Source of the DNA: an uncultured Candidatus Saccharibacteria bacterium | GTDB taxonomy: Bacteria; Patescibacteriota; Minisyncoccia; Minisyncoccales; MHMH01 | NCBI GenBank assembly: GCA_964469735.1 | Contig: CAYXYS010000001.1 | Coordinates: 1 to 30,074 of the forward strand | Length of the DNA: 30,074 bases | Direction of reading: 5' to 3' | Part shown: positions 1,263 to 29,713 of the stretch, piece by piece | How positions within the stretch are numbered: the stretch's first letter is position 1 | Layout of the letters: every line of letters begins with the position of its first letter | Translations under genes and position numbers: made by a program | Notes under the pieces: model-generated | What the model was told of the DNA's origin: nothing | The model's database searches: none | Seen by the model: the letters and a program-made list of their open reading frames with translations, nothing else

Positions 1263-3196
1263 TCGGCTTTCAGTTTGGCTATCATGTCCCTTAATTCGGC
1301 TGCTCTCTCAAAGTCTAGACTTTGGGCGGCTTTCTTCATTTCCTTTTCCAGGAGCTTTATATCGTTGACCGCTCCAAATTCCACTTCGGCTGTTTCTTTT
1401 TCTTTGGCTGAGGCAAAAGGCCAGTCCCTTATGGCTTTAACTATGGCTTCGGGAGTTATATTGTGGGCCTTGTTGTATTCTTCCTGAATTTTCCTTCTTC
1501 TGGTTATTTCCTTTATTGCCGTTTTCATAGACTTGGTCGTTTTGTCCGCGTACATTATGACGTGGCCCTTGGGATGGCGAGCTGCCCTTCCCATGGTTTG
1601 GATTAAAGTGGTTTCATTTCTTAGAAATCCCTCTTTGTCGGCGTCGAGGATGGCCACCAGCCCCACCTCCGGCAGGTCCAATCCCTCTCTTAAAAGATTT
1701 ATTCCTACCAAGACGCTGAATTTTCCTTCCCTGAGGTCTCTTAATATTTGGGGCCTCTTTAATGTTTTTACTTCCGCATGGAGCCATTGGGTCTTAATTC
1801 CCTCTTCAGTTAAATAGTCTGCCAAGGCTTCAGCCAGCCTTTTGGTTAAAGCAACAACCAGGATTCTCTGTTTGTTTTCTACTCTCTTTTTAACTTCGGC
1901 TATAAGATCTTTAACTTGGTTTTCCGTAGGGCGGATTTCAATGGAAGGCTCTATTAGCCCGGTTGGGCGGATGAGCTGTTCAACAATATTCTTCTCCCCG
2001 GCCTTTTCTTTTTCAAATTCGGAAGGAGTAGCCGAAACGTAAACCGCTTGGAGAATTCTTTTTTGAAACTCTTCAAAGGTTAAGGGCCTGTTATCCAAGG
2101 CCGAGGGCAGGCGGAAGCCGTATTCGATTAAAGTGTTTTTTCTGGCCTTATCCTGGACCGACATCGCCCTTATTTGGGGTATGGTCATATGAGACTCGTC
2201 GATGAAAATGAGAAAGTCTTTTTTGAAGTAGTCTAAAAGCGTGTAGGGAGCTTGGCCGGGCTTTCTGAATTCCAGCTGCCTGGAGTAGTTTTCTACTCCG
2301 TGGCAAAAGCCGGTTTCCTCTAGCATTTCCAGGTCGTACTTAGTTTTCCTTTCCAATCTTTGCGCTTCTAGTAGTTTGTTTTGTTTTTTTAATGCCTTCA
2401 GCTGGTTTTCCAGTTCCGATCGGATGTTTTCTAAGGCAACACCTATTTTATCCTGGGGCGTTATCCAAAAGTGGGCAGGGAAGATTCGACACTCACTAAT
2501 AAAACCATGGTTGCGATTTCGAGTTTTTGTTTGGGAAATTTGCTCAATTTTTTGTTCGGAAAACTCTATTTTTAGTATTTCTTGGCCGGTGACAGAAAAA
2601 ATTTCCACAATATCGCCTCTGACCCGGAAAGTACCCGGTTTAAAATTAATATCGTTTCTTTGATACTGGAGAGAAACCAGGTGATTGAGCAAATCCTTCC
2701 TTTTAATTTTCTTTCCCGGCTCCAGCTCCAGGGAAACTTTCTGATAGGCCTCGGGAGAGCCGATATTGTAGATGCAGGACACCGAAGCCACCACGATGAC
2801 ATCGTTTCTGTTCAACAGATCCTGGGTGGCAGCGTGCCTCAACCGGTCGATTTCCTCGTTGATCCTGGCATCCTTTTCTATATACGTATCCGACTGGGGG
2901 ATATATGCTTCGGGCTGGTAATAATCGTAATATGAGACGAAATAATGGACCGCGTTATTGGGAAAATATTCCTTGAACTCCTGGTAGAGCTGGGCAGCCA
3001 GAGTTTTATTGTGGGAGATTATCAGGGTGGGCTTATTTGTTTTTTCTATGACCTTGGCCATGGTGAAGGTTTTGCCGCTTCCTGTCACACCCAAAAGCAC
3101 CTGATGCTTTTGCCCCGCAGTCAGATTTTTGACCAGTTTTTCTATTGCCTGGGGCTGGTCTCCCCTAGGTTCGTAGTTCGAAGCCAGTTTAAACAT
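1259..3196 (-). CDS. uvrB: Excinuclease ABC subunit B
   Basis: GVTGSGKT Walker A, YFVSYYDYYQPEAY, DESH, LLREGLDLPEV, QTMGRAAR, and C-terminal UVR motif LDFERAAELRD. Confidence 0.98.
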   Translation of the reverse strand: MFKLASNYEPRGDQPQAIEKLVKNLTAGQKHQVLLGVTGSGKTFTMAKVIEKTNKPTLIISHNKTLAAQLYQEFKEYFPNNAVHYFVSYYDYYQPEAYIPQSDTYIEKDARINEEIDRLRHAATQDLLNRNDVIVVASVSCIYNIGSPEAYQKVSLELEPGKKIKRKDLLNHLVSLQYQRNDINFKPGTFRVRGDIVEIFSVTGQEILKIEFSEQKIEQISQTKTRNRNHGFISECRIFPAHFWITPQDKIGVALENIRSELENQLKALKKQNKLLEAQRLERKTKYDLEMLEETGFCHGVENYSRQLEFRKPGQAPYTLLDYFKKDFLIFIDESHMTIPQIRAMSVQDKARKNTLIEYGFRLPSALDNRPLTFEEFQKRILQAVYVSATPSEFEKEKAGEKNIVEQLIRPTGLIEPSIEIRPTENQVKDLIAEVKKRVENKQRILVVALTKRLAEALADYLTEEGIKTQWLHAEVKTLKRPQILRDLREGKFSVLVGINLLREGLDLPEVGLVAILDADKEGFLRNETTLIQTMGRAARHPKGHVIMYADKTTKSMKTAIKEITRRRKIQEEYNKAHNITPEAIVKAIRDWPFASAKEKETAEVEFGAVNDIKLLEKEMKKAAQSLDFERAAELRDMIAKLKAD

Positions 3197-12599: not shown

Positions 12600-12672
12600 G
12601 TCCTCATAGCTTAATTGGATAAAGCGCGACCCTCCGGAGGTTGAAATCTAGGTTCGAGTCCTAGTGAGGGCA
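12600..12672 (+). tRNA. tRNA-Arg(CCG), CCA not encoded
   Basis: Acceptor GTCCTCA/TGAGGGC, D-arm AGCTTAATTGGATAAAGC, anticodon arm CGACC-CTCCGGA-GGTTG, T-arm CTAGG-TTCGAGT-CCTAG. Confidence 0.95.
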
Positions 12673-17450: not shown

Positions 17451-18695
17451 ATGCTGGTTGCCGACTTACATCTGCATTCTAAATATTCTCGAGCTACCTC
17501 CAAAGACATGGATTTGGAGAATCTGGACAAATGGGCCAAAGTCAAGGGGATAAAACTTTTGGGAACAGGCGACTTCACCCATCCCGAGTGGTTCAATAAT
17601 TTAAGAGAAAAATTGGAGCCAGCCGAAACCGGTTTGTTTAAATTAAAAGAGATGCCTAGCTCTACCCGCTTTATGCTGACGGCTGAGATAAGCTGCATTT
17701 ACAGCAAGGGCGGCAAGGTAAGGAAAATTCATATTATCGTGCTGGCCCCTTCCTTTGAAGCGGTTGAGAAAATAAACGCCAAATTGGGGCAGATAGGCAA
17801 CCTTAAAGCCGACGGCAGGCCAATTGTGGGATTGGATGCTTTGGAGCTGGCTAAAATATGCTGGGAGGCCTCTAAAGATTGCCTGGTTATTCCGGCTCAC
17901 GCTTGGACTCCGTGGTTCGGCATATTCGGTTCCAAGTCCGGCTTTGACTCGATGGAAGAGTGCTTCGGCGATTATTCAAAATATATTTATTCTATAGAAA
18001 CAGGACTGTCGTCGGATCCGGCCATGAATTGGCGGCTTTCAGCTCTAGACAGAATAACCTTGATTTCCAATTCCGATGCCCATTCCCCCCCGAAAATAGG
18101 CAGGGAGGCTAATGTTTTTGACGTGGGCTTGAGCTATCCCGAAATTACCGGAGCCATAAAAGAAGGAAGTCCGGATAAGTTTCTTTACACGGTGGAGTTT
18201 TTCCCGGAAGAGGGCAAATACCATTACGACGGCCATCGCGCCTGCGAAGTCAGCCTTTCTCCCAAAGAATCAAAAAAATACAACAATACCTGCCCGGTTT
18301 GCGGCAGGCCTTTAACTATAGGGGTGATGAACAGGGTGGAAGAGCTGGCTGACAGGCCCGAAGGATTTAAGCCGGAAGGAGCAGTTCCTTTTAAAAGTTT
18401 GGTTCCCCTAAAAGAAATTATTGCAGAAGCTCTTGGAGTCGGAGCCGGCAGCCTTAGGGTCGGAAAAGAATATGACAGCTTGATTAAAAATATCGGCAGC
18501 GAATTTGAAATATTGCTTTCGGCTGATAGAAAAGATTTGGCTGAGGCAGCCGGTCCGGAAATTGCCGAAGGGGTGGTCCGCGTTAGGGAGGGAAAAGTCC
18601 AAGTGGAGCCAGGCTACGACGGCGTCTACGGAAAAGTGAAGATATTCTCCAAAAACGAGGAGAGGGGTGAAATAAGGCAAAAGACTTTGTTTTGA
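17451..18695 (+). CDS. Endonuclease Q family protein (PHP domain + Zn ribbon)
   Basis: DLHLHSKYSRA, GTGDFTHP, PAHAWTPW, ETGLSSD, SNSDAHS, GKYHYDGHRAC...CPVCG, PGYDGVYG. Confidence 0.92.
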   Translation: MLVADLHLHSKYSRATSKDMDLENLDKWAKVKGIKLLGTGDFTHPEWFNNLREKLEPAETGLFKLKEMPSSTRFMLTAEISCIYSKGGKVRKIHIIVLAPSFEAVEKINAKLGQIGNLKADGRPIVGLDALELAKICWEASKDCLVIPAHAWTPWFGIFGSKSGFDSMEECFGDYSKYIYSIETGLSSDPAMNWRLSALDRITLISNSDAHSPPKIGREANVFDVGLSYPEITGAIKEGSPDKFLYTVEFFPEEGKYHYDGHRACEVSLSPKESKKYNNTCPVCGRPLTIGVMNRVEELADRPEGFKPEGAVPFKSLVPLKEIIAEALGVGAGSLRVGKEYDSLIKNIGSEFEILLSADRKDLAEAAGPEIAEGVVRVREGKVQVEPGYDGVYGKVKIFSKNEERGEIRQKTLF

Positions 18696-18698
18696 TTG

Positions 18699-18840
18699 TG
18701 CCCGGTAGTGAAAATTCGACAACCCTTAAAGTTGTGGATTAAACTACAGGGATGACATATTGTAAAAACGCAATTATTAATTAAATGCGGCAGTCAATTT
18801 GACCGAGTCAAAACAACTGCCGAATTTCTACTACCGGGTA
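18699..18840. mobile_element. MITE-like 142-bp element with terminal inverted repeats and a 6-bp flanking direct repeat
   Basis: Left end TGCCCGGTAGTGAAAATTCGACA vs reverse complement of right end TACCCGGTAGTAGAAATTCGGCA match at 19 of 23 positions. TGATTG flanks both sides (18693-18698 and 18841-18846). Confidence 0.7.
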
Positions 18841-19202
18841 TGATTGAAGAATATAAGCTCGGCCTTATTACAATCGACGGAGAAGACTATGACTGCGACG
18901 TGCAAGTCCGATGGGACGATGAGGTTTCGGAGTGGAAGAGAGACGAAGATTATAAAATAAAGTTGCAGGACGTTTTGCCGGCTTTGGAGCAAAACCCCGA
19001 AGTTATAGTAATCGGCAACGGAGAGGCGGGCATGTGCGAAGTAGAAGAGGAAGCTAAAAGAGCGATAGAAGAACGGGGGATTAAGCTCATTATCGACAAG
19101 ACCGAGCAGGCCACGAGAACTTTTAATATTCGCAAAGAGGATTCTCTGGAAGAAGAAGGGCGGTTGGAAAAAGTGATAGGGCTTTTTTGTTTAAATTACT
19201 AA
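18840..19202 (+). CDS. Mth938-like domain protein
   Basis: MIEEYKLGLITIDG, PEVIVIGNGEAG, IKLIIDKTEQATRTFN, VIGLF. Confidence 0.8.
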   Translation: MIEEYKLGLITIDGEDYDCDVQVRWDDEVSEWKRDEDYKIKLQDVLPALEQNPEVIVIGNGEAGMCEVEEEAKRAIEERGIKLIIDKTEQATRTFNIRKEDSLEEEGRLEKVIGLFCLNY

Positions 19203-29368: not shown

Positions 29369-29393
29369 ATTGTGGCCTCCGAAAATTACGGTG

Positions 29394-29713
29394 TGGAGAT
29401 GGGGAGTAATGAGCTCCCGTCTGAAAGGTTTTTAAGACAGTTCTACAGGCTTAGTTTGTTTAATGGCTTCGGAAAGATGAATACCAAACAAACAAAATTT
29501 CATTTTTCCTAGCCTCGATTGTTTTACCGGTTCTTTTGAGGCGAAAAGGACCGGCTATCTCGATAATATGGCACCCTTATTACCTATCGAGAGTCGGTAA
29601 TTCGGATGGCTTTAAGCTACTGCTAAAGCGGGTTGTTTGAACATCTTGCCAGATATTCTAAAGTTTGCCTGCCCTGTTTTAAAGAATCCCTCCATCGAAT
29701 CGGGTTCATCCCC
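29394..29713 (-). ncRNA. ssrA: tmRNA (SsrA), tag (A)GKMFKQPALAVA
   Basis: 5' GGGGATGAACCCGATTCGA; 3' GACGGGAG-CTCATTA-CTCCC-CATCTCC-A. The acceptor stem has the G3:U alanine determinant. The tag frame 29650-29612 reads GGC AAG ATG TTC AAA CAA CCC GCT TTA GCA GTA GCT TAA. Adjacent to smpB. Confidence 0.93.

Follow-up and report, generated by a model that had tools for sequence, protein, structure and literature searches.

What separates the gene for EndoQ from the DUF498 (Mth938-like) gene downstream of it, and how can a long hairpin be tolerated directly before a start codon? The question is raised by a 30,074-nt stretch of DNA (the window, whose positions are used as coordinates throughout) from an uncultured Candidatus Saccharibacteria bacterium with a 533-kb genome in 60 contigs, referred to here as G000. 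We conclude, with a probability of roughly 0.8, that positions 18701–18838 are a gene-less, non-autonomous copy of a Patescibacteria family of MITEs (miniature inverted-repeat transposable elements) that inserted at the TATG of the DUF498 start codon, that the family is probably mobilised by a GIY-YIG nuclease, and that pairing of the element's arms would make the insertion tolerable. The locus is composed of the following features.

17451–18695, forward strand: EndoQ gene (from the list of open reading frames, or ORFs; PDB PfuEndoQ 5zb8, E = 1.8e-56; TIGR00375, E = 1e-53).
18697–18700, forward strand: putative 5' copy of the target duplication, TGTG (from TATG), deduced from the empty site ...tttTAAataTATGattg in the congeneric genome G012 and from five other filled/empty pairs.
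18701–18720, forward strand: left terminal inverted repeat (TIR) CCCGGTAGTGAAAATTCGAC, an arm found at 8 places in the genome and in many metagenome-assembled genomes (MAGs) of Patescibacteria.
18721–18818, forward strand: non-coding interior with three hairpins in the minimum-energy fold (about 18720–18754, 18769–18789 and 18790–18820).
18819–18838, forward strand: right TIR GCCGAATTTCTACTACCGGG (family consensus GTCGAA...; T>C at 18820 in the window copy).
18839–18842, forward strand: 3' copy of the target duplication, TATG, with the ATG at 18840–18842 being the DUF498 start codon (empty-site comparison).
18840–19202, forward strand: DUF498/Mth938-like gene, the host gene at the target start codon (PF04430, E = 1.4e-15).
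18690–18849, forward strand: full base of the predicted RNA helix (fold −58.4 kcal/mol, z = −7.6).

The EndoQ stop codon (TGA, 18693–18695) lies 5 nt upstream of the left arm. The initial annotation, made from the letters of the window, had described imperfect 23-bp inverted ends between an EndoQ and an Mth938-like gene, and both observations stand: 18699–18721 (TGCCCGGTAGTGAAAATTCGACA) and 18818–18840 are inverted repeats that match at 19 of 23 positions with all four mismatches being transitions, and the two flanking genes are identified by the 5zb8 and PF04430 matches listed above. A repeat finder run on the window returned an arm core of 21 nt at 86%, and a 19-nt arm with up to three mismatches matches the window twice against 0.02 matches expected by chance. 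At 138 bp and non-coding, the element is of MITE size (below about 500 bp). The window's ORF list holds no ORF of 50 aa or longer inside it, and no remnant of a GIY-YIG gene was detected in its interior by tblastn. Similarity of the interior is confined to other copies in its own genome (a long subfamily; tblastn and blastn), for which reason the idea that it represents a decayed nuclease ORF was rejected. An internal promoter was also discarded as a candidate, the single promoter-like match being what shuffled sequence yields.

The initial annotation suggested a search of the genome for other copies, and BLAST of the window element against its own genome shows it to be one of 8–9 copies. Contigs C5, C25 and C35 carry full-length copies with 75–79% identity to the window element. 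C23 and C45 each terminate in an identical 5' half of the element, C19 and C30 contain short variants of about 75 nt that share the arms, and C42 has a lone 3' arm. Between the C25 and C35 copies the identity is 99%, as against 75–77% for the window copy compared with the others. The identical half-copies at the ends of C23 and C45 indicate that the repeat breaks the assembly. C23 and C35 can be joined through one copy by comparison of the RNaseH_like locus with G012, and the contig that would complete the C45 half-copy (at trmD by synteny) is not in the assembly. All copies in the genome share a single orientation and a 3' end of the form ...CTACTACCnGrTATG, the ATG of which opens an ORF; the ORFs downstream of these copies encode FtsZ, ribosomal protein L32, an RNaseH_like protein, FtsH, a polysaccharide deacetylase and a Wzy_C membrane protein. 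As a separate observation, the FtsZ encoded from C5:15814 onward carries a very lysine-rich N-terminal extension of about 75 residues before its tubulin domain. The extension lies directly 3' of the C5 element copy and is conserved in G012.

The initial annotation also suggested looking for an empty site in relatives, and the element is missing from the junction in G012 and in 13 other genomes of the host's family. Synteny of EndoQ and DUF498 is preserved in 14 family genomes, and the element is found at the junction only in the window genome. In G012, which belongs to the same genus, the DUF498 protein is 96% identical and begins with an identical ATG ATT GAA GAA. The empty junction of G012 reads ...ACTTTGTTT TAA ATA TATG ATTGAAG and the filled junction of the window reads ...ACTTTGTTT TGA T TGTG [CCCGG...CCGGG] TATG ATTGAAG. 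A chimeric query that combined the flanks of the other copies located five further orthologous sites in G012. The six comparable sites (DUF498, ftsZ, rpmF, RNaseH_like, ftsH and trmD) are all empty there, with flanks that are 83–96% identical and a single TATG at each. The five additional pairs are as follows.

ftsZ site: empty in G012, gaaatTATGgcc; filled, gagatTGTA[...]TATGgcc.
rpmF site: empty in G012, gtcagTATGgca; filled, gtcagCATG[...]TATGgca.
RNaseH_like site: empty in G012, ggttatTATGcaa; filled, ggttatTGTG[...]TATGcag.
ftsH site: empty in G012, atgggTATGaaa; filled, ataggTATG[...]TATGaaa.
trmD site: empty in G012, ataaTATGctt; filled, ataaTATG[CCCGG... (5' half only).

A more distant congener, G011, is likewise empty at both sites checked (rpmF and RNaseH_like). 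These comparisons of empty and filled sites identify the target as a TATG that contains the ATG start codon of the host gene and that is present in two copies when the site is filled. At the sites of the window genome the 3' copy is always TATG while the 5' copy can decay. Judged from these alignments, the right TATG copy supplies the working ATG of DUF498, and the insertion at this start codon postdates the split of the window species from its sequenced congener. T is the commonest base at position −1 of ORF starts in G000 (46%, with gene starts crudely called), and finding it at six of six sites, for which chance gives 0.46^6 or about 0.01, argues for a real, if modest, preference for TATG, a tetranucleotide that occurs at 3,123 sites in G000. 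Among 76 distinct copies, drawn from the matches listed and from the window genome and its family, 45 have the same 4-mer on both sides and another 17 show a single difference between the two flanking 4-mers, with the duplication adjoining the CCNGG...CCNGG ends of the arms. Flanks other than TATG (CTTG, AATG, CCCG, CGTG, AATA, TATA, CATA and AAAA) are direct repeats as well, which indicates a true target duplication and not a mere extension of the palindrome.

The EndoQ/DUF498 junction seems to collect small palindromic insertions in other genomes. In G003, which belongs to another genus, the junction holds a different element of 131 bp (L069:1369–1499) with CCCCGTTAGAAGTC arms and TATGA on both sides. 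The left TATGA keeps the EndoQ TGA and the right TATGA keeps the DUF498 ATG, so that the orthologous start codon has here been hit independently. Spacers of 0–200 nt at the same junction in L059 (G017), L061 (G008), L066 (G016) and L065 (G005) hold other hairpin repeats, examples being cgatgaactgaagttcatc and aacgttaaacattacgtt...aacgtaatgtttaacgtt.

The wider family was surveyed by an exact-pattern scan with GGTAGTGAAAATTNGAC over one genome per species, and all family counts given here are among the matches listed. Patescibacteria MAGs with many copies include Parcubacteria GW2011_GWB1_40_14, a Portnoybacteria MAG, Saccharibacteria and others; matches outside Patescibacteria lack a second arm and are taken as chance 16-mers. 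The family consensus is tATG CCAGGTAGTGAAAATTCGAC, 35–110 variable nt, then GTCGAATTTCTACTACCTGG TATG followed by an ORF. At least 37 of the 61 distinct complete copies adjoin, in forward orientation, the ATG of an ORF of 60 aa or longer, five are reversed with CATA on both sides and with CAT as the start codon of a leftward gene, and about a dozen lie elsewhere. The arms are 20–23 nt long and nearly invariant in the 76 distinct copies, with an interior that varies across the family. Stem position 10 is G.T in 76 of 76 copies and position 11 is A.C in 75 of 76, pairs for which the search pattern itself partly selects, and we take this to mean that the arms are conserved as non-identical ends. 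The distribution is patchy. The element occurs in 7 of 19 genomes of the host's family, G012 having none, and is multi-copy in only 4 of a 401-genome sample of the phylum, in which the single hits of most other genomes are as numerous as those of a reversed control pattern. With TIRs, a target-site duplication, dispersed copies and insertion polymorphism, the family has the structural properties of MITEs, the exception being a coding partner that is no recognised transposase.

A coding partner for these miniatures was found in other genomes. In a Parcubacteria MAG (L154) and a Saccharibacteria MAG (L160) a stretch of about 315 bp lies between the same arms and TATG repeats and holds one ORF of 88 residues, which matches the GIY-YIG profile PF01541 with an E value of about 1e-15. 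Among solved structures this protein comes nearest to 1zg2 (E = 8e-4) and 1ywl, both single-domain UPF0213 proteins, and then to SLX1. At locus L091, in another genome, there is an internal-deletion derivative of a nuclease-bearing copy; internal deletion is the usual origin of MITEs. A nuclease ORF lies between family arms in four of the five copy-rich genomes examined (G419, G420, G098 and G259), and family arms flank GIY-YIG ORFs at at least seven loci in all. The arrangement of a nuclease gene flanked on both sides by its cognate repeat, with more copies scattered in the genome, was observed at L200–L205, L209, L229 and contig C12 of G000, the arms being flipped relative to the ORF at L202 and L209. 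At least 12 of 30 small GIY-YIG ORFs inspected have their own 16–22-nt inverted repeats of different sequence and, being bracketed by distinct TIRs in this way, show that nuclease and ends co-vary.

Because no ORF other than this nuclease was found between identical arms and TATG repeats, we infer that the family is mobilised by a single-domain GIY-YIG nuclease of about 88 residues. The 315-bp elements with the same ends encode only the nuclease and not a recognised transposase. The proposal that the spacer is a non-autonomous mobile insertion is upheld by the multiple copies, by the empty sites and by the occurrence of the same ends around a nuclease gene elsewhere. As for a transposase with these ends, for which the initial annotation proposed a search, the ends do flank a nuclease gene in other genomes, but none with these arms is present in the G000 assembly, so the window copy may be stranded or may be moved in trans.

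G000 has small GIY-YIG genes of other kinds. At C12:2405–2715 there is a member of a second family with arms TATG|CCCCGTACCACAGC...GCTGTGGTACGGGG|TATG followed by an ORF; this copy contains a 99-aa GIY-YIG ORF whose frame is that of the left ATG and which ends 18 nt short of the host ATG, and a miniature copy of the second family (about 67 bp, C47:about 2279–2345) lies at a stop/start junction. A small GIY-YIG ORF without arms is located at C4:20079–20309 among tRNA genes and directly upstream of one. Before this ORF lie a duplicate of a tRNA 5' segment (ATTGCGGGGTCG) and a GC-rich hairpin, and the same layout is observed in G011 (L212) and G419 (L228). The C4-type nuclease gene may be lodged in or beside a tRNA gene.

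In the mechanism that we propose for the window family, the nuclease would recognise the paired arms and cut, host functions would complete the reaction, and the conserved tandem G.T/A.C mismatch could serve as a mark of strand or end. In a mostly coding genome a start-codon TATG would be one of the few targets at which the duplication spares the gene. Since a duplication at such a TATG leaves the gene intact, selection alone could give much of the association with start codons. It is also possible, though we consider it rather doubtful, that the 315-bp element is a self-sufficient transposon, and that it and its miniatures survive in 0.5-Mb genomes by landing on start codons, with the arm hairpin keeping the host gene translatable by holding the stop codon, or the upstream reading frame, opposite the start codon across the stem. 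If true, the 315-bp element would be the smallest known transposon and would employ a nuclease fold unused by any described prokaryotic DNA transposase.

The predicted mRNA structure suggests how the window copy could be tolerated. The RNA of the element folds at −52.5 kcal/mol versus −26.8 ± 3.7 kcal/mol for shuffled sequences (z = −6.9), with a similar value for the other strand, and the minimum-energy fold contains all three of the inner hairpins that the initial annotation had noted. In the extended fold (−58.4 kcal/mol) 18690–18710 pairs with 18829–18849, which places the EndoQ UGA opposite codon 2 of DUF498 and sequesters the AUG by pairing with 18697–18699. A ribosome terminating at the EndoQ UGA would be expected to melt the lower stem and free the AUG, and the originally close coupling of EndoQ and DUF498 could in this way persist across the 142 nt. 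On this reading the insertion would be tolerated because its arms pair in the mRNA with stop and AUG opposite each other at the helix base, and translational coupling of EndoQ and DUF498, which the initial annotation took to be lost, may be kept through the arm pairing. Alternatively, RNase III, for which a gene is present in the genome, could process the stem as it does for Correia elements. A further idea, that the stem brings a Shine-Dalgarno sequence back to the AUG and thereby restores a split ribosome-binding site, was dropped because Shine-Dalgarno-like motifs show no enrichment in G000 at −18 to −4 (14% of ORF starts versus 14% in a control window).

The stability of this fold, together with the presence of an RNase III gene, would also suit a conserved structured 5'-leader RNA that acts as a cis-regulator or processing signal and is not mobile DNA, an alternative that the initial annotation had retained. 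Such an RNA should occupy a fixed register and orientation relative to the start codon, as the copies in G000 do, but it should not be missing from the six orthologous sites of a congener whose flanks are as similar as reported above, nor be bordered by 4-bp direct repeats or exist in versions that carry an ORF. Compensatory changes are observed in 6 of 20 stem pairs across genomes; however, the inverted repeats of transposons co-vary without any RNA function, and compensation in the arm stem is therefore expected. G.U pairs are frequent at the base of the stem, yet over the stem mismatches as a whole G.U exceeds A.C on the sense strand by 31 to 19, which is not a convincing excess. Rfam returned no family match even at E values up to 10 (with Rfam 15 the only matches to the element were chance ones to plant miRNA precursors, at 20.6 bits versus a gathering score of 113), conservation is lacking in the interior and the distribution is patchy. 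With no Rfam match, empty sites and no RNA-type bias in the mismatches, we regard a leader RNA as very improbable. We give still slightly less credence to the exact insertion model of the initial annotation, in which an element TGCCCGG...CCGGGTA entered a TGA/TTG overlap (junction ...TTTTGATTGAAGAA) with a 6-bp TGATTG duplication and created the ATG with its last A. TGATTG does flank the segment on both sides, at 18693–18698 and 18841–18846, and removal of the segment would restore an xTGA geometry like the classic ATGA stop/start overlap of EndoQ and DUF498 in three relatives (G002, G009 and G010). The 6-bp repeat is found in no other copy, however, and the ATT that precedes GTR-CCCGG is already there in the empty ftsZ and RNaseH_like sites. 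The duplication that runs through the family is the 4-bp one next to CCNGG, as seen in the six empty sites and in the identical flanks of 45 of 76 copies. The TGATTG repeat can instead be traced to the EndoQ TGA with the TT that follows, to an A>G substitution within the left TATG, and to the first bases of DUF498, ATG ATT G. An ancestral TTG start is contradicted by all 15 family genomes that hold DUF498, which start the gene with ATG AT(T/A/C), and the ATG at the junction is one copy of the duplicated target and not a product of the element's terminal A.

Of the alternatives, the one that we take most seriously, while still considering it unlikely, is a REPIN-like hairpin repeat moved by a Y1 HUH (IS200/RAYT-like) transposase, with the GIY-YIG gene as cargo or as an unrelated Ssn-like nuclease that recognises hairpins. 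The element would form a long hairpin as single-stranded DNA (ssDNA), a strand-specific ssDNA mechanism would fit the orientation bias of the copies, and the arms contain GTAG, the tetranucleotide conserved in REPs. PF01797 genes number 0–15 per family genome, and their presence does not track that of the element (6 of 7 genomes with it versus 8 of 12 without it, n = 19). No arms flank the Y1 gene of G000, whereas arms do flank GIY-YIG ORFs at the loci counted above. Insertions of the IS200/IS605 type duplicate no target, and here even the flanks that depart from TATG are direct repeats. Profile searches of G000 found neither rve nor DDE_Tnp_1, transposase families other than these and Y1 not having been screened. 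Apart from this comparison, Y1 (PF01797) proteins of about 240 aa occur in 14 of the 19 family genomes, with up to 15 paralogues in one 0.8-Mb genome and no obvious link to the element.

Several points weigh against a GIY-YIG-mobilised MITE that is made tolerable by its arms. G000 does encode one 233-aa Y1_Tnp-like (IS200-like) protein (C8:8232–8969, reverse strand). Its two small GIY-YIG genes are only 49–51% identical to the cognate type, and G005–G007 have a few short copies and no GIY-YIG gene. A nuclease alone cannot join DNA, which makes host repair or another factor necessary. Gene-less copies have an orientation bias of about 8:1 relative to the host gene that is not explained by a symmetric mechanism of TIRs and target-site duplication. 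The left repeat of the window copy reads TGTG, and a duplication at this particular site is deduced from the family and not visible in place. Finally, a strong helix around the AUG of the essential ftsZ and ftsH genes is puzzling where no upstream ORF ends nearby.

MITEs are a known kind of element; the start-codon target and the nuclease partner are what is unusual here. In gene-less small size, TIRs of about 20 bp, a short duplication, long and short forms and a hairpin fold, the window family resembles the Correia/NEMIS elements of Neisseria, which are 70–155 bp long with TIRs of about 20–26 bp, are multi-copy, and are co-transcribed with their neighbours to give long hairpins in mRNA. The two differ in that Correia elements duplicate TA and lie in either orientation, whereas the window family duplicates 4 bp, usually a start-codon TATG, with the 8:1 bias noted above. 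We know of no coding partner for Correia elements, while the window family has a nuclease-bearing version with the same ends. REPIN/REP-BIME doublets with RAYT, and the IS200/IS605 and PATE elements, are comparable as short extragenic hairpin repeats that are thought to move as ssDNA hairpins. In contrast to the window family, where 4-bp duplications are the rule, they make no target duplication, and a RAYT gene is typically flanked by its REPs, whereas the Y1 gene of G000 shows neither arms nor correlation. Free-standing GIY-YIG homing endonucleases such as T4 Seg are also selfish GIY-YIG genes between host genes. They differ in having extra DNA-binding domains and in spreading by homology-driven repair into cognate alleles, without TIRs, duplications or miniatures.

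The closest published system is Ssn, a group of single-domain GIY-YIG ssDNA nucleases of about 90 residues (CDD cd10448, mostly Pseudomonadati) whose genes are flanked by NTS/SRM repeats that are also scattered in the genome (Chenal et al. 2025, PMC11893778). Repeat and nuclease co-vary in that system, each SRM is a hairpin of 20–50 nt, and the authors note the IS-like layout of NTS-ssnA-NTS, with mobility not shown; TIR pairing, target duplications, empty sites and targeting of start codons are not among the things that they report, and Patescibacteria go unmentioned (PMC11893778). The nuclease gene of the window family likewise lies between cognate repeats with further copies scattered. Unlike an SRM, however, a single arm of the window family (CCAGGTAGTGAAAATTCGAC) is not self-complementary and both arms are needed to form the hairpin, and the protein best matches UPF0213 structures and then SLX1. 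No description of the window family was found in the full-text literature (open-access papers and bioRxiv), and a start-codon-targeting, GIY-YIG-associated element family is apparently undescribed.

The genomes of Patescibacteria are minimal and leave hardly any DNA to spare, yet at least three families of hairpin elements are present in this one of 533 kb. Since all six comparable insertion sites arose after divergence from the congener, active invasion of such genomes is still going on. A start-codon TATG target with a duplication that restores the ATG would let a parasite insert into the only places where it causes no damage. If the 88-residue GIY-YIG protein mobilises the family, it would represent a new and extremely compact class of transposon and, like Ssn, a possible hairpin-specific nuclease tool. 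For annotators, such elements account for many "structured leaders" and for many odd spacers that genomes of the candidate phyla radiation (CPR) contain.

The third and more abundant hairpin family in G000 has arms CCCCGTTAGAAGTC...GACTTCTAACGGGG and 15 paired copies of 80–131 bp on contigs C2, C5, C8, C9, C12, C17, C19, C24 (for example C24:2697–2825), C27, C29 and C32. Its copies have 4-bp direct flank repeats (TCAA, TGAA, TCCA, TTCA, CAAA and TTTA) and several lie within a few bases of an ATG. In some of them the last G together with the duplicated TGAA would give a GTG start, and the arms also occur at many other Patescibacteria loci. Elsewhere in the window, the sole Rfam matches are a tmRNA gene (29391–29713, reverse strand, 96.6 bits) and a tRNA gene (12600–12672, forward strand).

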